A stretch of DNA of 64,000 bases from Escherichia coli (GTDB lineage: Bacteria; Pseudomonadota; Gammaproteobacteria; Enterobacterales; Enterobacteriaceae): NCBI RefSeq assembly GCF_003334765.1, contig NZ_QOWT01000022.1; one strand, 5' to 3'. Position numbers and translations under genes: made by a program. Positions 3,853 through 35,397 of the stretch are shown here, piece after piece. Below the pieces are notes generated by a model that made no database searches, had not been told where the DNA came from, and worked only from the letters and a program-made list of their open reading frames with translations. Positions within the stretch are counted from its first letter, which is position 1. The number at the start of each line of letters is the position of its first letter.

Positions 3853-4659
3853 ATGAGTGTTATGAATCCAATAAGTTCTAATATATTTAATGCTGAATTT
3901 TTAAACACCCCGGCAGCGGCACTTGCCGCATGGATTTCCATTATTGGAGCTGTTATAACTTTGGTGACGATAGTTATAAGAGCACTATTCAAATATAGAA
4001 AATCTCATGATGTAATTTTGAAAAAATCAGGAATACCTGCGTTTATATTGAATTTTTTTCTTATACGAATATCATTAAAAAGGCTGCCTACTATCACATG
4101 GGCTGAAAAATCAATCACGGTTCTCTTTTCACTTCTTTTTTTGTGTGCAATTTATATTTTTGGTCCAGTTTTCATCCAAGCCATTAGAACCCCACCAAAT
4201 AGCACATTGCTTTATTGGATAAAATCCGGTGAATCATTTTATATGTCAAAAAAACTGGCGACTGCAGCTACAATATTAACCACTCCTGATTGGGAAATAT
4301 CAAAGGATGATTGCGAAGAGTCATCCTCTGCCAGTACAGAGAAGTACAAATCATTAACTATCGAACATAAAGAAATTCTTTGTAAACTACTAACCACTGA
4401 TGAAGGGAATGCTTACATTGATGAAGAAGTCAAGAATTTCGTTAAAGACAAATTCTTTATCTATTCCTTTGCCCCAACAACCATATTTATTCTATTATGG
4501 ATTTCTTTGGGTTTTATACTGACCATTCACTATTCTAAAAAAGTTAGGAAATATATTCTGACTGAACAAAAAAATGCAATTCATTGGGCATATGGTGAAT
4601 TCAAGACAGAAGGAATCTATTCAATATATCAAGAGTTAGAACGTAAGACTCACCATTAA
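3853..4659 (+). CDS. Hypothetical polytopic membrane protein (moron inserted between tail genes S and V)
   Basis: 268-aa ORF, strongly AT-rich unlike flanking tail genes; several hydrophobic segments (e.g. AALAAWISIIGAVITLVTIVI, ITVLFSLLFLCAIYIFGPVF, TTIFILLWISLGFILTI); no recognisable domain. Confidence 0.6.
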   Translation: MSVMNPISSNIFNAEFLNTPAAALAAWISIIGAVITLVTIVIRALFKYRKSHDVILKKSGIPAFILNFFLIRISLKRLPTITWAEKSITVLFSLLFLCAIYIFGPVFIQAIRTPPNSTLLYWIKSGESFYMSKKLATAATILTTPDWEISKDDCEESSSASTEKYKSLTIEHKEILCKLLTTDEGNAYIDEEVKNFVKDKFFIYSFAPTTIFILLWISLGFILTIHYSKKVRKYILTEQKNAIHWAYGEFKTEGIYSIYQELERKTHH

Positions 4660-5047: not shown

Positions 5048-5498
5048 GTTTCACCGTCCACATTTCTTCAGGTTCATCGGGTTCTGCTACCGCTTCAACG
5101 CTCGACACACTGCCGTCAGTGCTGACCAGCACACGTTCCGTCAGTTGCAGGTTAAGGCTGATATCACAGACATCGTTGCGCAGAATATCCACCTCAAAGG
5201 TAAATAGTTTTTCCCGTAACGCCGGGTTATTGATGGCATCGGGCTGGTTATCCCGCAGCCACAGCAAAACCGGGGCCATCAGCAGATTCTGGTCGCCGCT
5301 GAAATCCTCAATCACCACGTTCAGGGTGTAACCACGCAGCCCTACGAGTTCACTAAAGGCAGTATCTTTCACCTGATGGAGCCGGACCTGAACCAGGAAA
5401 TTTACGGCCTGCCGGAATATCTGTCCGCCATTCCGTCCGCCTTGCTGAACGAGTCCGCTACGCTGTTCCGGCGTAAATACTACATCAATGGCAGTCAT
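5040..5498 (-). CDS. Tail completion protein (P2 gpR-like); N-terminus possibly not native
   Basis: 152-aa ORF; C-terminal ~100 aa look gpR-like (YTLNVVIEDFSGD...LTERVLVS); N-terminal ~40 codons are antisense to the portal fragment. Confidence 0.65.
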   Translation of the reverse strand: MTAIDVVFTPEQRSGLVQQGGRNGGQIFRQAVNFLVQVRLHQVKDTAFSELVGLRGYTLNVVIEDFSGDQNLLMAPVLLWLRDNQPDAINNPALREKLFTFEVDILRNDVCDISLNLQLTERVLVSTDGSVSSVEAVAEPDEPEEMWTVKRG

Positions 5499-5906
5499 GC
5501 AGGGTTCATCATGTATATGACCGACGCCGCGCAGAACCAGGAGGACGTGAACAACATCCGCCAGGCCATGAAAAGCGCTAAAGGACCGGGCAACTTCCGC
5601 AACCTGTTTATGTATTCACCCAACGGCAAAAAGGACGGGATTCAGATAATCCCGCTGTCAGAGGTAGCGGCAAAGGATGAGTTTCTGAACATTAAGAACG
5701 TGAGCCGAGACGACATGATGGCTGCACACCGCGTTCCGCCGCAGATGATGGGGATTATGCCGAGTAATGTTGGGGGATTTGGGGATGTGGAAAAGGCGAG
5801 TAAGGTGTTTGTCCGTAACGAATTGATACCGCTGCAAAAGCGAATTAAAGAAATTAATGAATGGTTGAGTGATGAAATAATTTCTTTCCAACCATATGAA
5901 TTATAA
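5376..5906 (+). pseudogene. Portal protein fragment (P2 gpQ-like, C-terminal portion only)
   Basis: 176-aa ORF ending ...NVSRDDMMAAHRVPPQMMGIMP...; portal-like C-terminus, about half the expected length; directly abuts gpR on the opposite strand with no capsid, terminase or lysis genes between. Confidence 0.6.
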
Positions 5907-5907
5907 T

Positions 5908-5934
5908 AAAGTAGGGCAAATAATGCCCTACTTT
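5908..5934. terminator. Bidirectional stem-loop between convergent portal fragment and 285-aa cargo gene
   Basis: Perfect inverted repeat AAAGTAGGGC-(AAATAAT)-GCCCTACTTT flanked by A/T runs. Confidence 0.6.
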
Positions 5935-6785
5935 AACCAAATATTATAATCCAATCTTCCTACGTATCTTGAAAAAACAGCCAGAGCAATTGCTTGCCCT
6001 ACACTTGTTAATTCAATTCCTTGATAGTTGCTCTTTGAAAATTTTTCTAAAAATGCAGACACATGAGGGGCAACTAACTTAAGATTTGAAATATATGCAC
6101 TCTTATCTTTTATATCAGTCGGATATTTACTCATAAAATAGTCTTCAACATCCATCCCTAAAAAAGTATTCCATGAACAAGCCCCTGCATATTGAATGTG
6201 ATATATCTGGGCTTGAGACAAATTAAACCCATTAGTATACATTGATTCAAAGTTTCTAAAATTGTGCTCCAACAAATCCAATCGAACACCATTAACAGGG
6301 TCTTTGATCTCAACATTCTTGAGAAGAAAAACTATCGTTATAAGTGATATTTGTTGCTGTGTTAACTTGGGAACGACGGTAACTGCCTCCGTTAAAACTA
6401 TATCTCTAAAATCGTCATTGTTATTGGAGACTCGTTCAACTAACAACTGAGAAAGCACATCCATATTAGCTTTCTTTCCCTTCCTGGCTGATGACTTTAA
6501 TGCCTCAGTCAATGTAGCCTGAACGTCCGGATCGCAAAATTTATCAATAATCAATCTATCAACGTTTTTTGTTAAATCCGAAACGACACGCTCTTCAAAA
6601 TCTTTTGCATTCTCTTGAGCTGCAGCATAAGCAACATCTTTCAATTTTGGAAACTGATTTTCGAAGAGAATGTTGAATAGTTCTCTAACCTCGGAAAACG
6701 ACATCCCTGAAACATTTACATTATTTCCAGCTTGAATTGCATACGAATTATTACCTATTTGTTGCTTTTGCTTATCACTAAACAT
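5928..6785 (-). CDS. Hypothetical protein, 285 aa (AT-rich cargo, cos-proximal)
   Basis: Long ORF in AT-rich DNA; no domain recognised; N-terminal low-complexity motif IGNNSYAIQAGNNVNV. Confidence 0.65.
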   Translation of the reverse strand: MFSDKQKQQIGNNSYAIQAGNNVNVSGMSFSEVRELFNILFENQFPKLKDVAYAAAQENAKDFEERVVSDLTKNVDRLIIDKFCDPDVQATLTEALKSSARKGKKANMDVLSQLLVERVSNNNDDFRDIVLTEAVTVVPKLTQQQISLITIVFLLKNVEIKDPVNGVRLDLLEHNFRNFESMYTNGFNLSQAQIYHIQYAGACSWNTFLGMDVEDYFMSKYPTDIKDKSAYISNLKLVAPHVSAFLEKFSKSNYQGIELTSVGQAIALAVFSRYVGRLDYNIWLK

Positions 6786-6794
6786 ATATCCTCC

Positions 6795-7040
6795 TTATTT
6801 TTTATCACCTGTATTTATACAATCAATTTTAATATCACCTCTAGCCTGGACAGCAGTTGAATTATCACCAACTGATTGGCTCATAGAATTATATTTATTT
6901 TTTGTAGTGATAAGTAATCCAGCTAAAGCGCTAACTGCAGCCAAAAATGCAACAATAGAATCAAAACCAGGATCCATATAAAGCCATAATCCTGCAATCG
7001 ATGCCAGCATACATGTAATGACTATTGCAAAAATTTTCAT
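6795..7040 (-). CDS. Small membrane protein, 81 aa, two predicted TM helices; co-oriented 9 bp upstream of the 285-aa gene
   Basis: Hydrophobic segments IFAIVITCMLASIAGLWLY and IVAFLAAVSALAGLLIT; C-terminal tail VGDNSTAVQARGDIKI resembles the N-terminus of the downstream protein. Confidence 0.55.
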   Translation of the reverse strand: MKIFAIVITCMLASIAGLWLYMDPGFDSIVAFLAAVSALAGLLITTKNKYNSMSQSVGDNSTAVQARGDIKIDCINTGDKK

Positions 7041-7345: not shown

Positions 7346-8347
7346 ATGGGTGGAGAGACTTCGGCTATACAACGAGTCGCGGGTAAGATTTCTGATGATA
7401 TTTTCTCAGTGTTCAAATGGGATCGTGCCGCTAGAGCGGACATGAATTGGGATTGTTGCCAAGAGGCTCATTCCAAGAAAACACATCCAAGCGATGTTGT
7501 ATTTTTCTACATAGATCCATATGAGGAGGAAATGGTCTATCTCAACACAGACCTCAAAAGCTATGCAGAAGGTACTATTGGGAAAAAAATAGTCGAGGGA
7601 GCTTTAACATCGCTTGCTTTAGCTACCGAGTGTGCAAATGTCAGTGAAGAATGGCGATTGAAATATGTTCATGATGATTCTTTAGGTTATAACGTAAGAG
7701 GGTTATTATTCTTATATAACCATGATAATTTATATGATAAAGACTTCTATGAGAATATTACAAAAAAATTAGATCACTCATCTATAAATTGCCCTCCAAA
7801 CATCAAACTACATTTGCTTGACCCTTATAAAATATCAGATTTGATAAACATATCTTCTGACATAACTAAGTTAATTGGTTCAGGCAAACTTCCTCAACCT
7901 GATAAGTTCACATATTATTATCCAGATCTTTCCCTAACAAGAATAAAGCACCCTATTAATCAGACAACACCTGCAACAATTGAATTATTAACATCACCAT
8001 ACATTATAATAAAGCATGAGGCTTTCAGTTGGCTCAGGGATAAAAACCCTGAGGGATATGTTGTTTATTACAATCAACCGGGGGATTCAGTAGACGAATT
8101 CGTTTACTTCTTTGATATGTTATCAACTTATCAGATATTAACCGAAGGTAAACCAATCGTATTACGCCATTGTCACATTCACCCAAATGAAAATGCCATT
8201 CATCATTTTGAAAGAGCGAAAAAGAAATACAGCACAGACTGGCTCTTAGGCGAGGATGAAAGACTTTTTCTTAAAATTGACTTCGACAAGACAGACAAAA
8301 TTGTTGTTGAATATAATCTTGAACAAATCGGCATGGAGCAACGATAA
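7346..8347 (+). CDS. Hypothetical protein A, 333 aa (first gene of three-gene cargo operon)
   Basis: ORF with AGGAG-like RBS ~10 nt upstream; AT-rich; stop overlaps next start (TAATG); no Walker A, RT or TIR motif seen. Confidence 0.7.
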   Translation: MGGETSAIQRVAGKISDDIFSVFKWDRAARADMNWDCCQEAHSKKTHPSDVVFFYIDPYEEEMVYLNTDLKSYAEGTIGKKIVEGALTSLALATECANVSEEWRLKYVHDDSLGYNVRGLLFLYNHDNLYDKDFYENITKKLDHSSINCPPNIKLHLLDPYKISDLINISSDITKLIGSGKLPQPDKFTYYYPDLSLTRIKHPINQTTPATIELLTSPYIIIKHEAFSWLRDKNPEGYVVYYNQPGDSVDEFVYFFDMLSTYQILTEGKPIVLRHCHIHPNENAIHHFERAKKKYSTDWLLGEDERLFLKIDFDKTDKIVVEYNLEQIGMEQR

Positions 8348-9426
8348 TGGCTAAAAAACTATATTTCGCAACTGATAAAAATATTTATGATGCATTACAT
8401 CATAAAAGGATAACCGCTGCAAAGTTGCATGAATTATTGTTGAATCGAGGTGTGTTTTTATCACCAGAACTCGACAAGGAAATACTAATCGAGGAAATAT
8501 CCAAACTTCCTCACGGATTTAATGAATTAGAACACATAAAAAAACTGGTCAAAACATATGACCCAAGGGAAAGCACTACTAGTGTGAGCTTCCAAACCTC
8601 AACAAATCAGGCCGAATTAAAAAGTGCTGCTGAAGCACTAAAAAAAACATGCTCCCCTAGTAAAGGTCAAAGCCTGAATATTGTAGCTAAAAAAGATGGC
8701 TCGCTTACAGTAGAATACAAATATGAAGAAATAGACCTGTCTAAAACTGCATTACGTCAGATCGACAAGCGGAATGTTATAATAGAACTTCGCCCTGGAG
8801 CTGACAAAGTTGAAGTACGTATGCCTCAAAACCCCGAGGCAAAAAAAGTTATTGAGAGCTTGCAAAACGAGCTATCTAAAATCAAGTCCGAACCTATCGA
8901 GCGCTTCGAAATATCATTACTAGCAATAACTGATCCTACATTGCGAAGTCAGTTTTTTCAGGAATTAATGAATGGTCTACGCGGTTATGAGACTGATGAC
9001 GTAACAAAAGTCGAATTAAATCGCAGTACTGATGCTAGTGAGGATGAAGACAAGGAAGAAACTATTGATACCGGATTTGTTAAGAAAGCCGTCCTTAATG
9101 GTGAAGGGGTAAATAGTTCAGCTATATTTTCTCAACTACATGAGAAAGGTTATTATATCGGGCGTATTGCATGGTCTTCAAAGCCGACAAGTGGAATTGG
9201 AGACAGAATCAACGTCGAAGCATTTTTCAAAGACTCAGAAAAATGCTGTGACTTTGCCTATCAAATTAAAGGTATAAACAATCAAAAAGAAGACGGTTTC
9301 AATGTAACCATTCGCGCGGCAACGGCACAAGAGAAAAAACATATTAGTGAATTAATTGAGTCCGCCGCTGAAAATGCCTATAATATAATAATAGGATCAG
9401 AGGTGAACGAAGATGAAAAAGGTTAA
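8347..9426 (+). CDS. Hypothetical protein B, 359 aa (second gene of three-gene cargo operon)
   Basis: ORF coupled to gene A by a 1-nt overlap and to gene C by a 14-nt overlap; acidic stretch DASEDEDKEE; no recognisable domain. Confidence 0.7.
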   Translation: MAKKLYFATDKNIYDALHHKRITAAKLHELLLNRGVFLSPELDKEILIEEISKLPHGFNELEHIKKLVKTYDPRESTTSVSFQTSTNQAELKSAAEALKKTCSPSKGQSLNIVAKKDGSLTVEYKYEEIDLSKTALRQIDKRNVIIELRPGADKVEVRMPQNPEAKKVIESLQNELSKIKSEPIERFEISLLAITDPTLRSQFFQELMNGLRGYETDDVTKVELNRSTDASEDEDKEETIDTGFVKKAVLNGEGVNSSAIFSQLHEKGYYIGRIAWSSKPTSGIGDRINVEAFFKDSEKCCDFAYQIKGINNQKEDGFNVTIRAATAQEKKHISELIESAAENAYNIIIGSEVNEDEKG

Positions 9427-10096
9427 ATGGCTTAAGTTAAACATACGGCTTGAGTTTGAAACAGCCGTTAGACGTCTTTCTCTTGATTCTTTTACAGAGG
9501 ATAAAGGGAAAGGGTTCATTTTTGATAAAATACGCCATGATTTTGCAAATGGTCGCTTTGTCGAGCGTATTGTTTATCATGATAAAATATTAAGCTTTGA
9601 CGGAAGCGAAACTACCGTTGAAAGAATCGAATATCGCACCACAAATTTTAGCGTGGCTTTAGACTCTCTTCCTGTAATGCAGATTACTAACCCACCCAGA
9701 ACTTTAAAGCCTTTTTCGCAGGCTTTGGTAAAAAATCTTGGCTTAGGTGTTAGTTTGGAAGAAATTGACATAAACCCTATAGACTGGCTTAATGAAATAT
9801 CTTCAAGTGTAAATATCAATTTAACACAACTTGATATTTCAAGGGTTAGAGTTTCTGATTACGCCACAGCTAAAATGCAAATAATTGGCAGCAATGATCT
9901 TAGGAAGTATTATAAAGAAGAATTAGAGGGTAAAAAAATAAGAATTGACAGGCTTGTTTGCTCTGTTAATTCATTAGAATATTCCGGTAAGCTCAAGATC
10001 ACCAATAGCGGCCTTGCTTATATTGATGTTAGAAATGAGAATGAGTTTACGAAAATCGTTTTTGATACGTTAAAAAAAGTCACCCTTCAATCATAG
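9413..10096 (+). CDS. Hypothetical protein C, 227 aa (third gene of three-gene cargo operon)
   Basis: ORF starting inside the end of gene B; followed by a strong hairpin; no recognisable domain. Confidence 0.65.
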   Translation: MKKVKWLKLNIRLEFETAVRRLSLDSFTEDKGKGFIFDKIRHDFANGRFVERIVYHDKILSFDGSETTVERIEYRTTNFSVALDSLPVMQITNPPRTLKPFSQALVKNLGLGVSLEEIDINPIDWLNEISSSVNINLTQLDISRVRVSDYATAKMQIIGSNDLRKYYKEELEGKKIRIDRLVCSVNSLEYSGKLKITNSGLAYIDVRNENEFTKIVFDTLKKVTLQS

Positions 10097-10152: not shown

Positions 10153-10183
10153 GTAGGCGTCAGAATCAAGTTCTGACGCCTAC
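10153..10183. terminator. Bidirectional stem-loop between cargo operon and DinI-like gene
   Basis: 13-bp perfect inverted repeat GTAGGCGTCAGAA-(TCAAG)-TTCTGACGCCTAC. Confidence 0.6.
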
Positions 10184-10191
10184 AATGTTTC

Positions 10192-10425
10192 TTAATGCAG
10201 CCAGCTATCGTCCTCCCAGACCTGCTGCATTATTTCCATCACTCGCTTTTTGTCTTCATCCAGTTTTAACCCGCTCAGCTCAACGCCATTGGCGCTGCCC
10301 TTACGGATACGAATTGCTGTTTTGGGATACAGAGGGCGCAAATTACGGTAAAGCTCGGATTCAAGGGCGTCCAGGGTAGACTGGCTAATCTTCTGCTCTT
10401 TATCGATCATTATTTCAATGCGCAT
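10192..10425 (-). CDS. DinI-like protein
   Basis: ORF 10192-10497; internal Met begins MRIEIMIDKEQ..., 77 aa, alignable by eye to E. coli DinI (MRIEVTIAK...WESADDW); downstream of a LexA box. Confidence 0.7.
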   Translation of the reverse strand: MRIEIMIDKEQKISQSTLDALESELYRNLRPLYPKTAIRIRKGSANGVELSGLKLDEDKKRVMEIMQQVWEDDSWLH

Positions 10426-10435
10426 AAAAGCCACC

Positions 10436-10624
10436 TCAGCTGATGACATCCATTGAGCGGTTGTATTCGTGGGTTCTGATTTTTGCCATGAGTTCATCTG
10501 TCAGTTCAGAAACCCACTGCAGAGCCAGCCCCTTCTCTTCATCACTACACTCACTAGCCGCTACAAGCTTAAGAAAAAAATCAATGCGCTGGAGCTTCAA
10601 AGACTCCAAAAAATAGTCCTGCAT
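10436..10624 (-). CDS. Small protein, 62 aa, first gene after the LexA box (possible Tum-like antirepressor)
   Basis: ORF ~40 bp downstream of the LexA box; position corresponds to the SOS-controlled tum module of 186-like phages; functional call is by position only. Confidence 0.35.
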   Translation of the reverse strand: MQDYFLESLKLQRIDFFLKLVAASECSDEEKGLALQWVSELTDELMAKIRTHEYNRSMDVIS

Positions 10625-10664
10625 CTTTCCTCCTATGACACCAAAGCAACACTGTATACATAAC

Positions 10665-10683
10665 CACTGTTTGTATTTACAGT
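10665..10683. promoter_or_regulatory. LexA operator (SOS box) upstream of the tum-like/DinI-like module
   Basis: ACTGTTTGTATTTACAGTA fits CTG-N10-CAG; AT-rich promoter-like context. Confidence 0.7.
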
Positions 10684-10775
10684 ATATAATAATATTACTG
10701 ATGTAAAACGTTTTTTACGTTCATCAGCCTGATATGCCTGGTATTATTAAGAGCACGAATTGTTAACCTGCGTAA

Positions 10776-13190
10776 TTAATACAGGTTCCGCCACTTATCA
10801 TCTTCCTGCAAACGCTGGTTCCGATAGAAGATACGCAGGCCTGCTCCTGACGGAATACTGCCACCACGTAGGAGTAAATCGACCTCTTTCTCGCTGCCAT
10901 CAAATCCTCTGGACTTCAGCTCATAGACGAGCTGCTGTCGCTGATGATCTGTAATTCGCTGTTTGTAGTCTTTACGCCGTTTCAGCTTAACTAGGCGTAA
11001 CCTCGCTGCCAGTTCCCGGCGCTCTTTTTTGCTCATACTGTGCAGGTAATCGTGCAATTCCTTGTCATCCATGCGGGTAATGTCCGTTCTGGTGTCCCCA
11101 TCAGCTGATTTATCTTTATCCTGTTGGTTCAAATTTTCAGCAAGGGGACAGTTATTGCCACGAGTCCAAGGGGCGCAAGCGCCCTGGTCGGCTGCCGCCT
11201 CCTGAACGTCAACGGCTTTACGAACCATTTTCCACTTCACTGCATGAGTGCAGATCTTGCCCTCTGCAATGGGTGACCAGATGCCATAAATACGAATGCC
11301 GTGATCGCCATAGGCGGTCGGCTCTTCGTTGATTTCATAAGCGGTTCTGATGAGGTGATATTTACGGGGAACCAGTACGCCGCCCTGCTTCATGATGTAG
11401 GTGGCAAAACAACCAGCATCAGCAGCAGCCAGAATGGCATCAAGACGCGGGTTATCCAGTACCGGCGCACCTGCTTTTTTGTCACCCTGTTGCCTTGCCG
11501 CCTGACCAGCCAGCAAGCGAAGTTCACGGTAAGCCTGACGCCCCGGAATACCAAAGAAGCGGAATTGCTGAACACGATGCAGAGACGCCCAGGCATTAAC
11601 GTATTCAGCGTTATCACGCAGGGATTTACCCGTTTCCTTGCTGATCTCGCCAGCCAGACCACGCCCGTCAATGTTCTTACTGATGTATTTCGCGATGTAG
11701 CTTGTTGGCGTACCTTTGCGCGGGTTTATCAGCTCAGACTTAAAGCGTGGCCCCGTGTTATTGCCCAGCTCCTCGCGGTCTTCACGGATGGCAAACTTAC
11801 GCAACAATGCAGTAATGGCGCGGCGGTCTTTTTTGCGCATGAAACACAACAGGTGCCAGTGAACTGTGCCGTCATGATGCGGTTCAGCCACCCGCACGCC
11901 ATACCAGCGCAACCCGGCTTTGTGCATAGCCTTACGAAATGCAGCAAACATGCCGACCAGATAATCGCTGCTTTGTCTTACCGTCGCGTTTGTCCAGGTC
12001 GGGTTTGGTCTGCCGTTATTGAGCGTGGAATGGAAACGCGACGGACAGGTGATAGTGTAGAAAACGGCACAGTCACTGCGCATTTCTGCGATAAGCTCCA
12101 GACCTTTAACACAGGCCATCATCTCATTGCGGCGATGCGCCGGGTTGCTGCTGCTGGCGTTTACCACATCCTCCATGTCCAGCGTGTCGCCGTCTTCGTT
12201 CACCAGTTCATGAGAACGGAAAAACTCCAGCGACTTACGGCGCTGCTCACGTTTATGCATCACGGCTTCATAGCTGACATAGGGAGATGCTTTTTTGCTG
12301 ACCAGGCAAACAGCACGCAACTGCTCTTCCCGCCATTCGCAACGCATCTTCCATAATTTCCGGTACCACCAATCGGCGCACAACATACGCGCCAGCGAAC
12401 CCGGAATGAGTTCATAGGGCACGGGTTTACGGCGGTTTCTTTTCCGACGAAGTTGCTCAAACGCAGGCGGGATAACATCCAGTCGCAGGGTTTCTGCTGC
12501 CACCTTTTCCCATGTCTTGCGGATTTCTTCTGGCTTAACATCATCGGTGGCGTACAAATCACCACAAGCGGCATCAAGACACATGCTCATATGCGCAGCG
12601 ACAAGAGTAGACAGGCGTTTCACCTGATCCTGACTCATTTCAGGCAGAATCAGCAGGCCGTCCAGCCCTACATGGCTTGCCATAAAACGAAAAGATGCAG
12701 ATAGCTGGCTGTCGCGTACATGCTCCAGTCGCTCCAAACATGGCTTAATCGTCTCACGCAAATAGCGGGAATAAGCCTTTGGCCTGCCCAGGCTGCTGAA
12801 GTATTCAATACGTTGCATCAGCGGCTTGCTGATATGGGAAGGCTGGGCATTGACGTCCGCCAGAATGACCATATCTGGATTAAAACGCTGCTGCTCATGC
12901 GCCAGCTTTGCCCGACTAATGAGCTTATCCTGCTCCATTTCGCGCTGGACAGGATCACGGGATTCATTAAAGAAATAACGCTCCCAGACCTGATCACTCA
13001 GTGCCTCGCGGCGCAGGTGTTCCTGTTCGTTATCGGCAGCGTACAGAGCGATCAGGTTTGAAAGCGCAGAAACCGGCGCAACTTCCGCCGGGTCCAGATA
13101 AGGGTTAATGGCCTTTTTCGGGCTGTTCCATGAGAACGCTGCGGCAGCCTCGTTAAAGCCGCAGCAGTTGTTCATATCGGCATGGCTCAT
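10776..13190 (-). CDS. Replication initiation protein A (P2/186 gpA-like rolling-circle replicase)
   Basis: 804-aa ORF, the size and position of P2-family gene A; start overlaps Dam stop. Confidence 0.75.
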
Positions 13191-14044
13191 GCACGTACTC
13201 CGTACACGGCAGAACTATCCACGCCACGCGAATAATCAAATCCCACCCAGCAGCGCGGCCCGGAAACAGCAATGATTTCTGTTGCTGATTTACCCTCGCC
13301 AGCTGCCACACCGATGCTGCGTTTTACCTTGATATAGTGGTGAGTAAAATTGCGATACAGCGAACGGATCAGGGATGTATCACTGTTAGAAACAATGACC
13401 GGATGTCCTTCTGATGACCGATGTTCAAGAACGGATGCCAGGTGATACTGGTCATCTTCAGTGAAACCATCAGTGTGATAGCCGGAAAACGTACCGTCAT
13501 ACGGCGGATCGCAATACACCACATCCCCCGCCTTCAACATCGCCAGCGTTTCATCAAAGCTGGCGCAGATAAACGTTGCTCGCTGGGCTTTTTCTGCAAA
13601 TGCGCGAATTTCTTTTTCAGGGAAATACGGATTTTTATAATTACCGTAGGGAATGTTGAAATGCCCGCTCTTGTTATAGCGACATAAACCACGGTAACCG
13701 TGACGATTGAGATACAGGAAATATACCGCTTTCATGAAATCAGTAATTTCAGTTGAGTAATTAAACTCCTGCCTTATGTTGTAATAAGCCCCCCCCCTGT
13801 TTGCGATCTCAAATAAAACTCTGGCGCGAGATATAAACGATTCACAATCAGCAGCAACCTTTTTATAGAGGTTGATTAAATCAGGATTAATATCCGCAAC
13901 AAGATAGCTGGGGTACTCCGTCTCCATCATCACTGCACAGGAACCCGCGAAAGGTTCAACCAGTCGCGGGCCAGCAGGAAGATGCTTTTTCAGTTCGGAC
14001 ATAATGGCGGTTTTATTTCCCGCCCATTTCAGGATGGTGCTCAT
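13187..14044 (-). CDS. DNA adenine methyltransferase (Dam-like, D12 class)
   Basis: ORF 13187-14104; start chosen at internal Met ([11 protein letters not shown]...); motifs EPFAGSCAV and DPPY typical of Dam-type N6-adenine methyltransferases. Confidence 0.85.
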
Positions 14045-14268
14045 ACAGCACCTCCGTTGTAATGTTTGCCTTTCAGCTCTGCGATTTCCTGACAGGTAAT
14101 GCAAAGCTGCACACCCGGAATGGCACGGCGGCGTGCTGGCGGAATTGGCGCTTCACACTCAATGCAAAGCACGCGGGACACGCCCGGCGTTTTGGCACGG
14201 GCAGCACGGATATGACGCTGGCGTTCTTCTTCAACGCGCTGCTGTACGAGATCCATTGCATCAGCCAT
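14041..14268 (-). CDS. TraR/DksA-family C4 zinc-finger protein
   Basis: 75 aa with CIEC...CITC cysteine pairs. Confidence 0.7.
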   Translation of the reverse strand: MADAMDLVQQRVEEERQRHIRAARAKTPGVSRVLCIECEAPIPPARRRAIPGVQLCITCQEIAELKGKHYNGGAV

Positions 14269-14507
14269 TAGTGGATCTCCTGCGCTTCGTTCTGGATTGC
14301 TTCAGCTGCCACACGCAGCAGTTCAGCCGCTTCAACGTGGTTTAGCTGGCGGGATGTGATATGGCACGCAAGGCTATCAAGGCGAGCTGCCATTGCTTCA
14401 GCTCTTGCCCGACGTTCTTCCAGACGAGCCTCTGTCAGTAAAATATTAAGTCCTGCGTCATCCGGTCCGGTTTTAGTCGAGAGGGTTTCAATATTACGCA
14501 TAATCAA
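14268..14507 (-). CDS. Hypothetical phage early-region protein, 79 aa
   Basis: ORF packed in the early operon between the TraR-like gene and upstream genes. Confidence 0.5.
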   Translation of the reverse strand: MIMRNIETLSTKTGPDDAGLNILLTEARLEERRARAEAMAARLDSLACHITSRQLNHVEAAELLRVAAEAIQNEAQEIH

Positions 14508-14568
14508 TTCTCCTGAATTTAGATAAAGGAATGCCCGGCGGGTTTACGCCATGAATTTCATTAATTGG

Positions 14569-14910
14569 TTAATTCGGCATGGCTAGCCGTCTGGGAAATA
14601 AGCTCACCACTGCACGAAGATGATTCATTACTTTAATCAACTCCCGCTTTTCGTCAGTGGTCAGCTCATTAATGCTGATGCTATGACGTTCAGCTGGAAT
14701 TTTTGCTATAAAGAATATAGCAGCCAGTGCTCGTTTATTTCGTTCATAATTAATATCCCGTGGATCACGCATATCTTTAATAAACCGCTCAAGCTCTGAC
14801 TCAATATTCAGGCCAAAAACTTTCGCCCTTAACTCTGCAATGTGATTAAGTCCATTCAGGCGTTCACCGGGGCTTAATGGAACAGTTGCTGCAGCGCCAT
14901 TAATTGCCAT
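14569..14910 (-). CDS. Hypothetical phage early-region protein, 113 aa
   Basis: ORF in early operon; no recognisable domain. Confidence 0.5.
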   Translation of the reverse strand: MAINGAAATVPLSPGERLNGLNHIAELRAKVFGLNIESELERFIKDMRDPRDINYERNKRALAAIFFIAKIPAERHSISINELTTDEKRELIKVMNHLRAVVSLFPRRLAMPN

Positions 14911-16254: not shown

Positions 16255-16824
16255 GTGGATTTCAATAGCGGCGGTAAGAAAGCCATAGAACGTTTAGTTG
16301 AAGCATATGGGTTCGGTACCCGTCAGGCTCTATGTGATCATTTAGGTGTTTCTAAGAGCACCATGGCAACGCGCTATATGCGTGATATTTTTCCAGCAGA
16401 TTGGGTAATCCAGTGCGCCCTTGAAACGGGCACCTCGCTTAATTGGCTAACAACAGGGCATGGTTCAAAGCAAGCATCAGCAAATACAAATACTATAGAA
16501 GTAGAAAAATATTTATTGTCTGATGGAGCATTGCAGAAAGACGGTTTTTATATTTTTGATAAGGGATTTCTACCCTCTACGTTTAAAAAACCTTTTGTCA
16601 TCACAGATAACAATTCTGAATTTATTTGTGATAAAGAATTTGATGATATACGTGATGGTAAATGGGTAATAAGTATTGATGGCGAAATAACGATCCGTGA
16701 CATTACTCGTTTACCCGGTGGAAGAATCTTCGTCGAGGGTGGAAACAGAGCCTTCGAATGCAAGATAGAAGACATTGAAATAATTGGTAAAATTATAAGT
16801 TTAACAGTCAAGTATGTTAAATAG
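16255..16824 (+). CDS. cI: Immunity repressor (186 CI-type)
   Basis: ORF 16168-16824; start placed at GTG 16255 preceded by GGAGGA; product ...ERLVEAYGF...QCALETGTSLNWLTTG... fits the 186 CI N-terminal HTH region; length ~189 aa. Confidence 0.7.
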   Translation: MDFNSGGKKAIERLVEAYGFGTRQALCDHLGVSKSTMATRYMRDIFPADWVIQCALETGTSLNWLTTGHGSKQASANTNTIEVEKYLLSDGALQKDGFYIFDKGFLPSTFKKPFVITDNNSEFICDKEFDDIRDGKWVISIDGEITIRDITRLPGGRIFVEGGNRAFECKIEDIEIIGKIISLTVKYVK

Positions 16825-17031: not shown

Positions 17032-17219
17032 CTTTTGCTTTTATATCTGCGTCTAAAATAAAAATGAGCCGCAGGTTAACCGCAAAAGTTACATGCTCAC
17101 ATAGCAAAAAGAATAGCCAACTTAATTATGGCTTCAGTGAGATGTATGGTCGTAGGATTTCATACATTGACACTGGTTATACATACAGTGAAAATGCTCT
17201 CTACTGGAGGGCATTTTTT

Positions 17220-18296
17220 ATGGCAGTACGAAAACTCACCACTGGGAAATGGCTTTGCGAATGTTACCCCGCCGGACGAAGTGGGCGTCGTGTGCGTAAA
17301 CAATTCGTCACCAAAGGCGAAGCACTGGCTTTTGAGCGCCACACGATGGAAGAAACCGAAGCAAAGCCCTGGCTGGGTGAATCAGTGGATCGTCGAACAC
17401 TGAAAGACGTGGTTGAGCTATGGTTCAAACTACATGGTAAATCTCTGACAGCTGGGCAGCATGTCTATGACAAATTGCTGTTGATGGTTGACGCTCTGGG
17501 CAATCCTCTTGCAACCGATCTCACCTCTAAAATGTTTGCCCACTATCGAGATAAACGCCTGACAGGCGAGATCTACTTCAGCGAGAAATGGAAGAAAGGA
17601 GCAAGCCCGGTCACCATTAACCTGGAGCAAAGCTATCTAAGTAGTGTTTTTAGCGAACTATCCCGTCTGGGCGAATGGTCGTATCCGAACCCACTGGAGA
17701 ACATGCGAAAATTCACCATCGCAGAAAAAGAGATGGCATGGCTTACCCATGAGCAGATTGTTGAATTGCTGGCTGATTGCAAACGTCAGGACCCAATTCT
17801 GGCACTGGTAGTTAAGATATGCTTAAGCACAGGCGCACGCTGGCGTGAAGCCGTAAATCTTACCCGCTCACAGGTGACCAAATACCGAATTACCTTTGTC
17901 AGAACGAAGGGGAAGAAAAACAGAAGCATCCCTATCAGTAAAGAGCTTTACGAAGAGATCATGGCGCTTGATGGGTTCAATTTCTTCACAGACTGCTATT
18001 TTCAATTTTTATCCGTGATGGAAAAAACGTCTATCGTGCTCCCTCGCGGTCAACTCACACACGTTCTGCGCCATACGTTTGCGGCGCACTTCATGATGTC
18101 GGGTGGAAACATTCTGGCCTTACAAAAAATTCTCGGACACCACGATATAAAAATGACTATGCGTTACGCACATCTGGCACCGGATCATCTGGAAACGGCG
18201 CTCCGTTTCAATCCTCTGGCAACGCTGCCAAGTGGCGACAAAGTGGCGACAAAGTGGCGGCAGCGGTTGGCATTACCCCGTAATAACCACCACTGA
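17220..18296 (+). CDS. int: Tyrosine integrase (P2/186 type)
   Basis: ORF 17064-18296; start chosen at MAVRKLTTGKWLCECYP...; C-terminal region HVLRHTFAAH...MRYAHLAPDHL typical of tyrosine recombinases; 3' end abuts host DNA. Confidence 0.9.
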   Translation: MAVRKLTTGKWLCECYPAGRSGRRVRKQFVTKGEALAFERHTMEETEAKPWLGESVDRRTLKDVVELWFKLHGKSLTAGQHVYDKLLLMVDALGNPLATDLTSKMFAHYRDKRLTGEIYFSEKWKKGASPVTINLEQSYLSSVFSELSRLGEWSYPNPLENMRKFTIAEKEMAWLTHEQIVELLADCKRQDPILALVVKICLSTGARWREAVNLTRSQVTKYRITFVRTKGKKNRSIPISKELYEEIMALDGFNFFTDCYFQFLSVMEKTSIVLPRGQLTHVLRHTFAAHFMMSGGNILALQKILGHHDIKMTMRYAHLAPDHLETALRFNPLATLPSGDKVATKWRQRLALPRNNHH

Positions 18297-28099: not shown

Positions 28100-28311
28100 A
28101 CTTCGATCCTCCTCTTCCCAGCCTTGTTGCAATTAAATAGTATGGCTATTTTTTGAGCAAAATGCTGTCCAGGATCAATTCTTCACGCCGAATTAACAAA
28201 ATTTACATTTCCTTCGCCTCCGCCAGCGAATGAGATTGCGATACAAATTTTATCCAGAACTCTGTAGAATCCCTGCCCTGACCTTTCCTGTAACTGAATA
28301 TTTTTTAAGCT

Positions 28312-29637
28312 ATGAGCAAAGTAACTCCCCAGCCGAAAATCGGCTTTGTTTCCCTTGGCTGTCCGAAAAACCTTGTTGATTCAGAGCGTATTCTCACCGA
28401 ACTCCGCACTGAAGGTTATGACGTGGTACCGAGCTATGACGATGCGGACATGGTGATCGTCAACACCTGCGGCTTTATTGACAGCGCGGTACAAGAATCA
28501 CTGGAAGCCATTGGTGAAGCGTTGAATGAAAACGGCAAGGTTATTGTGACCGGTTGTCTGGGGGCAAAAGAAGATCAGATCCGCGAAGTCCACCCGAAAG
28601 TGCTGGAAATCACCGGGCCTCATAGCTATGAGCAGGTTCTGGAGCACGTTCATCACTACGTGCCAAAACCGAAACACAACCCATTCCTGAGCCTGGTGCC
28701 AGAACAAGGTGTGAAACTGACGCCGCGTCATTATGCCTATCTGAAAATTTCTGAAGGCTGTAATCACCGCTGCACCTTCTGCATTATTCCGTCTATGCGC
28801 GGCGACCTGGTGAGCCGTCCGATTGGCGAAGTGTTAAGTGAAGCGAAACGTCTGGTAGATGCGGGCGTTAAAGAGATTCTGGTGATCTCGCAGGATACTT
28901 CCGCCTATGGCGTTGATGTTAAACATCGTACTGGCTTCCACAACGGCGAGCCGGTAAAAACCAGCATGGTCAGCCTGTGCGAACAGTTATCGAAACTGGG
29001 GATCTGGACACGTCTGCACTACGTTTACCCTTATCCGCATGTGGACGACGTCATCCCACTGATGGCAGAAGGCAAAATCCTGCCGTATCTGGACATTCCG
29101 TTGCAGCACGCCAGCCCGCGCATTCTCAAACTGATGAAGCGTCCGGGTTCTGTAGATCGCCAACTGGCGCGCATCAAACAGTGGCGCGAAATCTGCCCGG
29201 AACTGACCCTACGCTCAACCTTTATTGTCGGCTTCCCTGGCGAGACAGAAGAAGATTTCCAGATGCTACTCGACTTCCTGAAAGAAGCGCGTCTGGATCG
29301 CGTTGGCTGCTTTAAATACAGCCCGGTTGAAGGTGCAGACGCCAATGCCCTGCCTGACCAGGTTCCGGAAGAAGTTAAAGAAGAACGCTGGAACCGTTTC
29401 ATGCAGCTGCAGCAGCAGATTTCCGCCGAGCGCCTGCAAGAGAAAGTGGGCCGTGAAATTCTGGTGATTATCGACGAAGTGGACGAAGAAGGCGCGATTG
29501 GTCGCAGCATGGCAGATGCACCGGAAATCGACGGCGCGGTTTATCTCAATGGTGAAACCAACGTTAAGCCGGGTGATATCCTGCGTGTGAAAGTCGAGCA
29601 CGCCGATGAGTACGATTTGTGGGGTAGCCGGGTTTAA
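28312..29637 (+). CDS. rimO: Ribosomal protein S12 methylthiotransferase RimO
   Basis: 441 aa radical-SAM MTTase with CxxxCxxC motif (CNHRCTFC). Confidence 0.9.
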
Positions 29638-29683
29638 TTAATTCAGGCCGGGCAAAATCATTTGTCCGGCCTGCGAATAATGA

Positions 29684-31012
29684 TTACTGCCAGCTAATCT
29701 GTGCCCTGCCGTTTTTCTTACTCTTATACAGCCGCTCATCCGCCAGCATTTTCAAGCGTTCGACGGTAGGACATTCATTTGAATGTGCTACACCGATACT
29801 GGTACTTAAATTAATGCTTCCCACCTGGAAATGAACGATTTCTTTTAGAATCGATAGCAACTCTTCCAGCGTTCCACCCGTATAAATCACCGCAAATTCG
29901 TCACCGCCGAAGCGGTAGACTTTACCTTTATCTACCGGGATCTGTGATTTAAGGATTTTCACCACTTTCATCAACACTTCATCGCCCAGCAAATGACCGA
30001 AGGTGTCGTTAATGTTTTTGAATTTATCGACGTCAAACAGGCACAAATAACCGCCTTTTTCCGGCAGCGCTTTTAAATCTTCGTCAAAGGATTTTCTGCC
30101 CATTGCTTTGGTCAGGTCGTCCAGGAACGCCGAGTTATACATACTGTAGAGTTTTTTGACATCGGCAGCCGAAAAGAAAAGCCCGCCATCCAGTACGCGT
30201 TCAAAATGGTTATTAATGATGGCTTCTTTCTCCACAATACCACGATTAATCACTCTGCGTACCAGATAGAGGCAACTGGCACCCGATATCACTGCCACCA
30301 ATGCGGCAAAGAAAATAATCAATGTACAAACCCGCAAATAAACATCTTTTTTATACGCAAATACATACAATCCGGTCGGCAAATAGGCGAAGTGCTCCAT
30401 CGCTTCCGAAACGGTGAAGATGGCGTTTTTAGCATTATATTCATCACCGGTCACCGGTTTACCGTTCTTAAATAGAGAGAACATCAGGTTCTCGCTGTCC
30501 ATCGCCAGCGATTTTGACAGTAAAGAAAAACGCTCCAGACCAAGCAAAAATATCAGACTACGATTGTGAGTTACCGGATAGAGGTAATAGACGAAGGTTT
30601 TACCGTCAAAAGAGATAAACCCTGTATTTTTGACATGTCGATACTTCACAACCTGCATAATATCTGCACAATAATTTTTCTCGAACTCCTTTACCTGAAT
30701 ACATTCGTCACTGGAAATCAGATAAGGACCGACATCGTACAAATAAGAGGGGGAAACCGAGTCGGCGTAAGCTGTGCGCAAACCAACCAACAGCTGTTCC
30801 TCCGTGGGATTTAGCGTGTTGATAAGATCAATTGCCACGCTACGCCGATATTCAGCAATATTTGCCACCGCAAAAGCAGTATCAATAACGGACTGTTTCA
30901 GGCTATACACCCGTTCCTTTACCATTTGAGTGTAGATCCCGCAGGCAACTGCTGAAATCATGATAAAAATCAGCAGACTGACTGTAAGTACGAACTTATT
31001 GATTCTGGACAT
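29684..31012 (-). CDS. dgcI: Diguanylate cyclase DgcI (YliF)
   Basis: 442 aa, TM region plus GGDEF domain (RFGGDEF). Confidence 0.85.
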
Positions 31013-31019
31013 ACGTAAA

Positions 31020-33368
31020 CTACTCTTTTACTAATTTTCCACTTTTATCCCAGGCGGAGAATGGCATGGGTTTCTGGTACAGATACCCCTGAGCCTGAAC
31101 ACATCCTAATTTGATTAATTCGCGCGCAACGTCTTCGCTCTCTACGCCTTCCGCAATCACCGGGATCCGGTTATAGCGTGCCAGGTCGAAAATAATGCGC
31201 ACAATTTTTCCCGCAGTACCGAAAATATCGCCGGTGAATTGCGAGTCCACCTTTATGCTGTCTGGATTAATTTCATAAAAACGTTTCAGGTTTGACAAAC
31301 CGGTGCCAAAGTCATCAATCGATATCCGTACCCCTTGTTTACGCAGTTGTTCAATATTGAGATAAAAATGTTCATTAATTCGCTCGATCACGGTTTCAGT
31401 GATCTCAACACAGAGGCTGTTCGCCTTCAGGCCATTTTCTTTCATGATGGTGGTAAAACGCTCATGAAAGTGTGGTTCGTTTAACTGCCAGGGCGAAACA
31501 TTAATATGCAGTAAGAAATCATCCTTCAGCGACGCACGCTGACTAAAATGTCTGAATTCACCCATTGCCGTTTTAATAATCTGATAACCCAGCTCATTGA
31601 TAAACCCGATATCTTCAGCAATGGTAATGAACTTCAGCGGTGAAATGATCCCCCGCTCCGCAGACACCCAACGGCACAACGCCTCCGCGCCCAGAATGGC
31701 GCGGGTGTTAATATCAACGATCGGTTGATAGACGAGGAATAGTTCGCCAATTTCCATTGCATGGCGAATATTACGCGCAATCCAGATATTCTCTTCTATT
31801 TCGTTGAGTTTCGCGTCATCACAGAAAATAAACTCTGAGAACATATGGTCACGGATACTGGAAATCGCCAGTTTCAGTTTTTCTGCGTAACTCCAGGCGT
31901 TTTCCCCCTGCAAAGGTTCACAAATGGCAGACTTATGGATGCGCAGATTGCGGTAGCCAAAGCTGCTGTCAAAATCGTTTACCATCGCTATTTTACGGGT
32001 AAATGTCTGTACATTTTCCCGACACAGAAGTAAATAGAGATCGGCATTGAATGTCACGATATCGCAGCATTGCGCATATTTCTCGGCAATTCGCTGACAC
32101 AATTTCCTGACGATTTTATTGCGCTCATCAACACCAAACACCGCTTCCACGGCTTCCAGACCACACAGTTTGATGATCCCCACAGCCAGATACTGATTAT
32201 TGTTAGACTCAATAATCGCCATATTTTTAATAAAACCACTTTCCTGATCGTAAGAGATCAGTGAGAGCAATTTATTTGACCGTTCAATTTCGGCATCTTT
32301 CATTTCCGCGATCGAATTTTTGATGCTGATAATCTCTTTCGCATCGCCTTCACGAATTTTCAGAGCCTCGATTTGATCCGTTGAGTCAGGCAAAAACGCC
32401 AGCGTATTAACCAGCTCTGTCATTTCAGAAAATTGCCGACGGAACACACGAGTGGTCATTAAATAAACCACCAGCAATACGATAATAATGAACGCAAACG
32501 GCAGATAAAAAAGTTTATCTGATGCGTTCAATAAATTACCGCCAGGATAATAAAAATAGATTTCGAATAATGCGTTGTTTGGCACCGCTGATGTTTTTTC
32601 GATATATTCAGTATCGACAGAATCAATAATATTATAATTACCTTCGCTATTATAAATAATCAGTTTTTCACGAGCGAGTTGATTCTTGGCAATGATCTCA
32701 TGGCCTTGTTTCAAAAATAGAACTTCATCATTAGCGCTGATTTGATCAAGATACTCGTTCAGATATCGCCAGTTTAAATCGACATGAATTTTATCCACCG
32801 CTAACAAATCGTGATCTTTGCCGTTGATGTGTAGCGTAAAAGAGATACATTTTTTACCCGGACGATCAAAGCAATTGTATGCCGGATTCCAGCTGTTGTT
32901 AGAGTCATCTGAAGCCACCGACCACGGTCGTTTCGATGGGTTAAAATCGGCAAAAATAACCCGCCCTGACTCGTCGACAAGCGGTCCATTTACTTGTTCC
33001 TGATGATAAACAACGATTTTATCATTCGCCCTCCGCGAAAAAAGATAATATTTATTATCATCAAGTACCAGTCCCACCGAGTCTAAAAATGGCATCATTT
33101 CCATTTTAAGAATCACGGCGCGTTGAATCTCCTCTGTATTTTTTAATAAATACAGTGAGTCCTTTAATGTCAGGGCCGAACGTTCAATATCTTTAAAGAA
33201 ATAGCCAACGTTTTTCTGAATAAGTTCAAAGCGGCTATCGGCACGTTTTACCGCGCGCTCCGATACCAGTTGATAGTTAATGATGAAAAAAAGACCAATA
33301 AATGACAGTGCTGCCAATAAAAATAAAATTATCAGCCTTATCTTTATCTTTTCGTATAAACTCAGCAT
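31020..33368 (-). CDS. pdeI: c-di-GMP phosphodiesterase PdeI (YliE)
   Basis: ORF 31020-33446; start at [10 protein letters not shown]... gives 782 aa; EAL domain. Confidence 0.85.
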
Positions 33369-33545
33369 GTTAATACATTTAACAAAATAACTATCTGAAC
33401 GCTGTGCCGCTGCAAAAATTGTCCCTTGCTGCGGCTTTTTAACCAAATTACCCGATTCTACAAAATCAGCAGAAAGTTACAACACTTGCTTAGGGCAATA
33501 ATTTCCTGTGAGGTGATTACCCTTTCAAGCAATATTCAAACGTAA

Positions 33546-34457
33546 CTATCCTTTAATTTTCGGATCCAGCGCATCGCGTAAACCATCGCCCAACAAATTG
33601 AACGCCAGTACGGTCAGAAAAATAGCCAGGGCCGGAAAAACAGCGACATGCGGCGCGATAACCATATCCGCTCGAGCCTCATTGAGCATTGCTCCCCACT
33701 CTGGTGTCGGCGGCTGCGCACCGAGGCCGAGAAATGAGAGGCTGGCGGCAGAGATAATCGAGGTACCAATGCGCATGGTGAAAAACACCACGATAGAAGA
33801 GACGGTCCCAGGCAGGATATGACGCAACAAAACGGTCATATCGCTGGCACCAATACTGCGTGCTGACTCAATAAAGGTTTGCTGTTTCAACACCAGCGTG
33901 TTGCCGCGCACCAGGCGGGCAAACGCGGGGATGGAAAAAATGGCGACTGCAATAATCACGTTAGCAATGCCGCTTCCCAACACCGCAACAACAGCGATCG
34001 CCAGTAAAATACCCGGGAAGGCAAACAGCACATCGCAAATGCGCATGATCAGCCGATCCCACCAGCCTTCATAATATCCAGTGAGCAAGCCCAGCAACGT
34101 CCCGATCGCCGCACCGATAAACACGGCAAACACGCCCGCCGCCAGCGAGATTTGCGCACCAACCAGGACACGGCTGAAAATGTCACGCCCCAGTGAATCG
34201 ACGCCAAACCAGTGCTGCAAAGAAGGTCCGTTATTCAGATTGTCATAATCAAAATAATTTTCGGCGTCATAGGGAGCGATCCAGCGTGCAAAAATGGCCA
34301 CCACAATCAATAAAATAACGAATAATGCGGCGGTCATCGCCATATGCTGACGGCGAAATCGTCGCCAGAATTCATGCCACGGTGTACGTACCTGGTCAGG
34401 TTTGACCAGTGGCATGGCGTTTAACACCGCCTGACGTCGCCAGTTAAATAGTCGCAT
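33546..34457 (-). CDS. gsiD: Glutathione ABC transporter permease GsiD
   Basis: 303-aa permease; synteny. Confidence 0.9.
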
Positions 34458-34459
34458 CC

Positions 34460-35380: not shown

Positions 35381-35397
35381 TCCACTCCCTGCGTTGC

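Follow-up and report, generated by a model that had tools for sequence, protein, structure and literature searches.

An Escherichia coli prophage remnant carries two small ORFs downstream of its replication gene A, preceded by a LexA-box-like sequence. This arrangement raises the question of whether the ORFs constitute a DNA-damage switch of the kind formed by the tum gene of phage 186, and whether such a switch could still act in an element unable to form particles. Here, the whole stretch of 64,000 nucleotides that was analyzed is termed the window. A sequence-only reading had proposed a LexA-controlled, Tum-like module at the gene A-proximal end of a 186-type remnant, a proposal that is supported by the box, by homology and by gene order. 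Taken as a whole, with a scheme running from LexA through an antirepressor to the CI repressor, the locus is very likely the split-tum SOS operon of a Fels-2/DuoHS-type P2-like prophage (Peduoviridae).

A LexA-boxed promoter after gene A

The module was correctly placed downstream of gene A: A ends at 10776, and the operon follows it on the same strand, all elements being on the minus strand (Table 1). An intergenic gap of 151 bp separates A from the ORF for a 62-aa protein. The gene order is identical in 186, PSP3, Fels-2, Cartapus and DuoHS, and the counterparts of gene A are labelled as replication endonuclease or P2 gpA homologue in Cartapus, Fels-2, E. coli HS and strain H3.

Table 1. Features of the tum operon, its flanks and the presumed target repressor (positions in the window)
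Feature	Position	Strand	Basis and remarks
GC-rich hairpin, strong, stem of 14-15 bp	10153-10183		Terminator-like scan and fold
DinI-family protein, 77 aa, TumB/Tum72 equivalent	10192-10425	-	Pfam DinI; identity to Tum; PHROG 189
Shine-Dalgarno GAGGTGG of the dinI-like gene	10431-10437	-	Sequence
TumA-type small protein, 62 aa, putative antirepressor	10436-10624	-	Homology; ATG at 10624
Shine-Dalgarno AGGAGG of the 62-aa ORF	10629-10634	-	4 nt before ATG; invariant in relatives
Degenerate box-like element GTGGTTATGTATACAG	10652-10667	-	Right half-site alone intact
LexA (SOS) box, minus-strand 20-mer TACTGTAAATACAAACAGTG, palindromic	10665-10684		Perfect CTGT-N8-ACAG core at 10667-10682
Putative -10 TACTGT	10679-10684	-	17-nt spacer after TTTACA; inside LexA box
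AT-rich hairpin in the gap between gene A and the tum promoter	10697-10728	-	RNA fold
Putative -35 TTTACA	10702-10707	-	Read by eye; invariant in HS, Fels-2 and Cartapus
Replication endonuclease gene A (804 aa)	10776-13190	-	ORF list; stop codon at 10776-10778
186-type CI immunity repressor, presumed antirepressor target	16255-16824	+	Pfam; GTG start; GGAGG ribosome-binding site

The AT-rich hairpin in this gap has a folding energy of -11.7 kcal/mol (z = -4.25), a stability equalled by none of 200 shuffled sequences, and is kept in the alignment of HS, Fels-2 and Cartapus. The hairpin, whose 3' arm contains the putative -35 hexamer, probably insulates the operon from early-lytic read-through or terminates this read-through. 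The LexA box overlaps the promoter, with the putative -10 hexamer TACTGT inside it as in p95 of 186; an alternative putative -10, TATACT at 10681-10686, would leave a spacer of 15 nt and likewise lies inside the box. A generic sigma-70 promoter scan did not call the tum promoter, because TACTGT fits TATAAT at only three of six positions.

Further downstream, the Shine-Dalgarno sequence of the dinI-like gene overlaps the TGA of the 62-aa ORF (10436-10438), a layout also found in HS, suggesting that translation of the 62-aa and 77-aa ORFs is coupled. The strong GC-rich hairpin (-26.4 and -23.8 kcal/mol; z = -8 and -7) separates the tum operon from the Hp1-3 cargo operon, which converges on it. 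This hairpin has a T-run on the plus strand only, and is terminator-like there.

The consensus of the LexA box is the 20-mer TACTGTATATATATACAGTA, with which the 20-mer of this locus agrees at 16 of 20 positions. The SOS box of the sequence-only reading is present, but its 19-mer, ACTGTTTGTATTTACAGTA, sits at 10666-10684 rather than at 10665-10683, an offset of one. Its distance from the 62-aa ORF had been put at about 40 bp, which agrees with the 42 nt found between the end of the box and the ATG. Searched with the 16-mer consensus at three mismatches or fewer, the 64 kb yields two matches where 0.12 are expected, and none of 100 shuffled windows reached two.

Homologous loci point in the same direction. 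Each of the nine inspected, namely the window, E. coli HS, Fels-2, Yersinia phage MLG42, ESSI2_ev040, Cronobacter phage ESSI-2, the Yersinia locus annotated 'tum protein', PSP3 tumA and 186 tum, has a perfect box 36-65 bp ahead of the start codon. These include loci whose DNA cannot be aligned to the window: in the distant ESSI-2 and ESSI2_ev040, where the small protein is 41-49% identical, the DNA is unalignable and the box is still perfect. In the 50-kb E. coli HS locus, the tum box is the sole perfect CTGT-N8-ACAG, and the same holds for most of the other loci. Enrichment over shuffled sequences, together with presence in nine of nine loci, makes a chance origin of the LexA box unlikely.

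Two other box-like sequences occur in or near the operon. A second perfect CTGT-N8-ACAG at 10317-10332 was considered as an additional operator and rejected: it lies within the dinI-like coding sequence, spanning the codons for LYPKT, its spacer is GC-rich and E. coli HS shows ACGG there, so that it probably just reflects codon content. The degenerate element just downstream of the LexA box, of uncertain significance, is paired by MAFFT with the LexA boxes of 186 and PSP3 and could represent either a vestige or an artefact of the alignment.

Two adjacent ORFs corresponding to one tum

The 77-aa ORF that follows the 62-aa ORF had been called DinI-like, and this holds: it matches the Pfam DinI model PF06183 over its full length (E = 3.9e-24; residues 14-76 covering model positions 1-63 of 63). 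It is also 41% identical to residues 71-145 of 186 Tum (E = 1e-24). Against the host DinI equivalog model NCBIfam NF007893, it scores 51.6 bits, below the cut-off of 111, indicating a phage paralogue and not the chromosomal dinI. A DinI-like module is thus present as the next gene, as opposed to a fused domain. Lemire et al. (2011; PMC3121763) noted that Tum looks like an antirepressor-DinI fusion; as 186 Tum has this composition, the two ORFs together correspond to tum, and not to tum plus an extra DinI. The sequence-only reading, which listed a small tum-like ORF and a DinI-like one, had both members right, but missed that the pair itself equals tum. By sequence, the pair is a split tum like tumA/tumB of PSP3.

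A comparison of the 62-aa ORF with 186 Tum, which the sequence-only reading had put forward as a check, is informative only at the profile level. BLASTP gave no alignment between the two, and searches of Pfam, NCBIfam, PADLOC and PDB sequence profiles returned nothing significant for the 62-aa ORF; the PDB profile search found no solved structure for the family either. PHROGs gave unnamed families only, the ORF belonging to PHROG 698, 'unknown function'. A first homologue search recovered only relatives of >80% identity, all 'hypothetical', and a profile restricted to these close relatives matched the Tum N-terminal domain with an hhalign probability of 38%. The profile was then widened to 88 representative relatives from an exhaustive profile search, with distant members added. 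The widened profile matches the Tum N-terminal-domain family at 96.7% (P = 3.3e-10; columns 2-44 on both sides, ungapped) and 186 Tum itself with 32 bits (E = 5e-12), at an identity between the 62-aa protein and 186 Tum of about 19%.

The distant members of the 88-representative set are progressively more Tum-like, and a search with the N-terminal 70 residues of Tum commonly finds stand-alone proteins of 63-72 aa that NCBI names 'Tum protein'. In a joint alignment, the two groups form a continuum with intermediates, E7 and R13 are near-invariant, and a Cys at the inter-helix turn is frequently conserved. The AlphaFold2 model of the 62-aa protein is a two-helix hairpin (pLDDT 88.5; helices 2-23 and 28-61). 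The protein is highly conserved across Enterobacterales, with conservative substitutions, which indicates that the 62-aa ORF is a real gene. It is identical at 61 of 62 residues to Fels-2 STM2728 and to E. coli HS ECHS_RS04495, and at all residues to the protein of many complete phages.

Published work on these relatives bears on function. According to the passages on these phages in Lemire et al. (2011; PMC3121763), a stop codon divides tum in Fels-2 and PSP3, leaving an antirepressor gene upstream and a dinI homologue downstream; the split Fels-2 tum was first described by Bunny et al. (2002, as cited by PMC3121763). The upstream gene of PSP3 carries antirepressor activity (Lemire et al., 2011; PMC3121763), and 186 Tum binds CI and blocks its binding to the operator (Shearwin et al., 1998, as cited by PMC3121763). 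Sequence records agree: that of 186 annotates full-length Tum (146 aa) as inhibiting CI DNA binding and internally initiated DinI-like products as modulating SOS induction, that of PSP3 annotates tumA/tumB with the small upstream gene for 'UV induction of prophage', and in Fels-2 the gene after STM2728 belongs to the DinI family and is noted to resemble PSP3 TumB. In the literature found, direct CI binding is shown for 186 Tum only, with no report for the present subfamily.

Genetic evidence comes from the Phollow study, in which an in-frame tum deletion in DuoHS abolishes mitomycin C induction, while the host SOS reporter response stays intact, and lexA(Ind-) blocks induction of the DuoHS prophage (PMC12055606). 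The deletion primers NHR24 and NHR28 map exactly to the ATG (24619) and TGA (24805), in HS-locus coordinates, of ECHS_RS04495, which is therefore the 'tum' of that study; the deletion spares the dinI-like gene. As the deleted gene product is identical at 61 of 62 residues, the 62-aa gene family has direct genetic support as an SOS-controlled inducer. Profile homology, these genetics and the literature on split tum together support the assignment of the 62-aa ORF as a TumA-type antirepressor.

Repressor, prophage remnant and competing explanations

The presumed target of the antirepressor is an intact CI protein with the domains Phage_CI_repr (PF07022) and Phage_CI_C (PF16452), matching the 186 CI structure 2fjr (E = 1.5e-31); in Pfam, its S24 peptidase match is not significant (E = 0.023). 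By its domains, HTH and CI_C, it is a 186-type repressor and would not be a LexA-like self-cleaving one. Its identity is 87% to DuoHS CI and 33% to 186 CI. The differences from DuoHS CI (13% of residues) are mostly in the N-terminal domain, which is 81% identical; relative to Fels-2 CI, the N-terminal and C-terminal domains are 61% and 26% identical, respectively. Pairing of the 62-aa protein with the CI of the window is assumed.

The early region at 10194-14910 is 95.7% identical to that of DuoHS, within an early-region range of 90-96%, and the ORFs from apl to A, as well as those of CI, cII and int, are all open. The prophage adjoins rcdA, as does DuoHS, and a LexA-like box lies in the putative int promoter (17173-17188). 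A counterpart of DuoHS coordinates 28128-35558 is missing in the window, so that most of the portal gene and the genes for terminase subunits, scaffold, capsid, head completion, holin, lysozyme and spanins are deleted; what is left of the portal gene, a fragment at 5325-5812, directly borders the tail gene region at about 5325-5331. Comparison with DuoHS thus confirms a defective prophage, in keeping with the earlier view of a remnant that cannot form particles. A tailocin, for which the kept tail and lost head might speak, is disfavored, as the holin, lysozyme and spanin genes are deleted too.

In the proposed mechanism, host LexA in undamaged cells would occupy the box over the -10 of the sigma-70 promoter and keep the operon off. 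Upon DNA damage, activated RecA would promote LexA self-cleavage and the promoter would fire, yielding two translationally coupled products, the 62-aa protein and the DinI-like protein. By analogy with 186 Tum, the 62-aa helical-hairpin protein would bind CI and block its operator binding; inactivation of CI would in turn derepress the early lytic operon (apl, cII, fil ... dam, A). The DinI-like protein (equivalent to Tum72/TumB) probably modulates RecA filaments, and thereby how strong or long-lasting the SOS signal is, and would be dispensable for induction, given that dinI deletions in Gifsy prophages have no significant effect (PMC3121763) and that in ESSI-2-type phages the LexA-boxed small gene has no dinI partner. 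In this remnant, early and tail genes could be expressed, possibly with excision or replication, but without virions or phage-encoded lysis. We infer that this copy is active and that its induction would be abortive, the latter because the prophage no longer has its terminase, capsid and lysis genes.

Could the module instead be a silent relic, its antirepressor mismatched to the CI allele or its derepression leading nowhere? Loss of most of the portal gene and of the terminase, capsid and lysis genes would have relaxed selection for induction, and the N-terminal domain of this CI is only 81% identical to that of the DuoHS CI behind the genetics. Yet the 62-aa protein is the very one encoded by many complete phages, functional relatives share the promoter, box and ribosome-binding sites with few or no differences, and no ORF among CI, apl, cII, A and int has closed. 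A Tum identical at 61 of 62 residues also pairs with the far more divergent CI of Fels-2, suggesting that variation in CI is tolerated. A silent relic is accordingly judged improbable, and it can reasonably be inferred that this copy still answers to SOS.

Other explanations accept the operon but assign it differently, or dispute LexA control altogether. If the 62-aa protein were not a CI antirepressor, it might, for example, act on RecA or LexA together with the DinI-like protein, or be an SOS-induced moron of benefit to the host; the low identity to 186 Tum and the subfamily's standing in databases as hypothetical or of unknown function leave some room for this. Such a role fits poorly with the DuoHS in-frame deletion, which blocks prophage induction and leaves the host SOS response intact, with homology to the Tum N-terminal domain and the antirepressor activity described for PSP3 tumA, and with the ESSI-2-type phages whose boxed gene lacks a dinI neighbor, so that we regard it as very improbable. 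Smaller still, to the point of being negligible, is the chance that CTGT-N8-ACAG is fortuitous and the promoter constitutive, or that the operon is transcribed by read-through from gene A. The motif is short, the other perfect match (10317-10332) itself appears to be due to chance and the generic promoter scan was negative, but nine of nine homologous loci have the box at a similar position amid unrelated flanking DNA, the motif is clearly enriched relative to shuffled sequence and 186 p95 is built in the same way. In addition, the near-identical DuoHS prophage is not induced in a lexA(Ind-) background, and a hairpin stands between the promoter and gene A.

Significance and relation to known systems

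The system and the phage lineage are already known, and annotation is the sole gap; the current understanding of the mechanism is unchanged by this locus. Of 5426 complete E. coli genomes, 1125 (about 21%) carry the 62-aa gene, which PGAP labels 'hypothetical protein' and which no Pfam or NCBIfam model covers. The main value of the analysis is hence in annotation: the E. coli HS genetics and the Fels-2 and PSP3 literature mark the gene as an SOS-controlled inducer. Judged from its sequence, the defective prophage here keeps a DNA-damage switch that is probably live. Without yielding virions, this switch could turn on genes for replication, filamentation (Fil), excision and the tail, and it could also affect co-resident prophages.

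A more speculative extension, which we consider rather unlikely, is that the antirepressor is promiscuous because it targets the conserved HTH domain, in which case the switch of the remnant could serve as a damage sensor in trans, cross-inducing heteroimmune Fels-2-like prophages of the same cell, and could also, together with the box at 17173-17188, drive SOS-dependent excision of the remnant with its defence cargo. Targeting of the HTH domain is hinted at by the pairing of 61/62-identical antirepressors with CIs that are 61% identical in the N-terminal domain versus 26% in the C-terminal domain.

Among known systems, the closest are DuoHS (ECHS_RS04495 with the DinI-like ECHS_RS04500) and Fels-2 (STM2728/STM2726.1), in which gene A, a LexA-boxed promoter, the 62-aa gene and the 77-aa dinI-like gene follow one another as in the window. 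The promoter region is about 91% identical to theirs, with the same box, -35 and ribosome-binding site, and the DinI-like protein is identical to that of HS at 68 of 77 residues. The prophage in the window differs from DuoHS in lacking the head and lysis genes, and from both DuoHS and Fels-2 in its downstream cargo, Hp1-3. In E. coli strain H3, the module is 100% identical to that of the window, whereas the CI allele is different and the deletion smaller.

PSP3 tumA/tumB shares with the window the split layout under a LexA box after gene A, but the sequence of PSP3 TumA (60 aa) has diverged strongly from that of the 62-aa ORF, and the distance from the first base of the box to the start is 38 nt in PSP3 and 58 nt in the window. 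In 186, tum likewise lies after A, is accompanied by a 186-type CI and has homologous N-terminal and DinI-like C-terminal modules; the annotated -10 of p95, TACTGT, forms the left end of the LexA site, and the window has the same hexamer in its box. Unlike the split genes of the window, the two modules of 186 are fused in one protein of 146 aa, from which internal starts give Tum72, and orf97, downstream in 186, is absent in the window.

The Gifsy dinI-gfoA/gftA-irsA and N15 AntC systems follow the same logic: a LexA-repressed promoter after a terminator-like palindrome, as reported for the Gifsy LexA boxes (PMC3121763), a small trans-acting antirepressor, a co-transcribed dinI homologue and a repressor that is not cleaved. 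These systems, however, belong to lambdoid phages and have the reversed order, with dinI first, and their antirepressors and repressors are described as unrelated in sequence to those of the window.

Constancy of the small Tum-like gene

The 62-aa putative antirepressor is nearly constant, with 61/62 residues identical among the window, E. coli HS and Fels-2, whereas the CI repressors, which are its presumed targets, have diverged. When the CI proteins of the window (16255-16824), HS (L005:18700-19269) and Fels-2 (L014:1592-2224) are compared, the N-terminal HTH domain of the window or HS protein is 61% identical to that of Fels-2, and the C-terminal domain is only 26% identical. On the basis of these sequences, either the antirepressor would recognise the N-terminal domain of CI, or the A-tum block would recombine independently of immunity.

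Among the distant homologues in the 62-aa family, many carry a glycine-rich C-terminal tail ending in a hydrophobic residue followed by Q (for example ...GGSRFQ, ...GGGGFQ or ...SGLLQ; noted in homologues P0266, P0272, P0278, P0280, P0297, P0301 and P0309), and this tail is absent from both the window's protein and 186 Tum. In the Peduoviridae phages ESSI2_ev040 (L007) and ESSI-2 (L008), the LexA-boxed small Tum-like gene has no dinI homologue after it; its next neighbours are an oppositely oriented transcriptional regulator gene and the portal gene, indicating that the small gene is the constant part of the module.

Cargo genes and independent decay of related remnants

The Hp1-3 operon lies between the tum operon, on which it converges, and the largely deleted portal gene; E. 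coli HS and Fels-2 carry unrelated cargo genes at this spot. Its matches to the PADLOC models are very strong (E-values of 1e-239 for Hp1, 3e-248 for Hp2 and 2e-157 for Hp3), the PHROGs matched by its proteins are of unknown function, and a match of the middle protein to antiphage GapS4b is weak and falls below threshold. The operon is a candidate anti-phage system. The neighbouring pair of genes encoding a 285-aa protein and an 81-aa, seemingly hydrophobic product is further cargo, and is also found in strain H3, an E. coli strain with an identical tum module. The 268-aa ORF is annotated in strain H3 as a DUF6216 family protein and had no match in the PHROG search; only ~116 bp separate S and V in DuoHS, the inducible prophage of HS, and this ORF is probably a moron.

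Coordinates of cargo, remnant and LexA-related features in the window
Feature	Position	Strand	Description
268-aa ORF	3853-4659	+	Between tail genes S and V, on the opposite strand to them
Deletion junction	~5325-5331		Located by comparison with DuoHS
Portal gene fragment	~5325-5812		488 bp, 85% identical to DuoHS
LPO_1073/Vpar_1526 family protein (285 aa) and upstream 81-aa ORF	5928-7040	-	NCBIfam 243 bits (285-aa protein)
Hp1-3 operon	7346-10096	+	AT-rich, three genes; full-length matches to PADLOC models Hp1, Hp2 and Hp3
Second CTGT-N8-ACAG motif	10317-10332		Within dinI-like coding sequence (codons LYPKT)
Putative int promoter region	17166-17222		TTGACA (17166-17171), 17-nt spacer, GAAAAT
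LexA-like box	17173-17188		CTGGTTATACATACAG, in int promoter spacer

The portal fragment is fused directly to the tail gene region, and the junction is a deletion scar. Absent from the window are ~7.4 kb of DuoHS, comprising the rest of the portal gene and the terminase, scaffold, capsid, head completion, holin, lysozyme and spanin genes. Strain H3 shares the cargo as well as the tum module, but its deletion is different and smaller, extending from gpM to lysC; related remnants therefore decay independently.

LexA-like boxes outside the tum promoter

The second perfect CTGT-N8-ACAG motif, which probably does not serve as an operator, has a GC-rich spacer; strain H3 and phage MLG42 share it, and E. 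coli HS has ACGG instead. When up to three mismatches are allowed, the LexA 16-mer consensus has only one match in the window besides the tum box: the LexA-like box upstream of int, the reverse complement of which has the form CTGT-N8-CCAG. Judged from its sequence, the surrounding region looks like a dedicated promoter for int. E. coli HS, strain H3 and phage 4LV2017 all conserve the box, and phage 813R9, which is more diverged, has an altered spacer but retains CTGG...ACAG. Located 3' of the putative promoter are a hairpin and a T-run (GCTCTCTACTGGAGGGC ATTTTTT), with the int ribosome-binding site in the 3' arm of the hairpin; 813R9 has a hairpin of different sequence at the equivalent position. 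This arrangement may allow SOS-controlled Int expression in the lineage carrying cargo between cI and int. Fels-2 and 186 have neither the int promoter nor the LexA-like box and hairpin, because in these phages int abuts cI.
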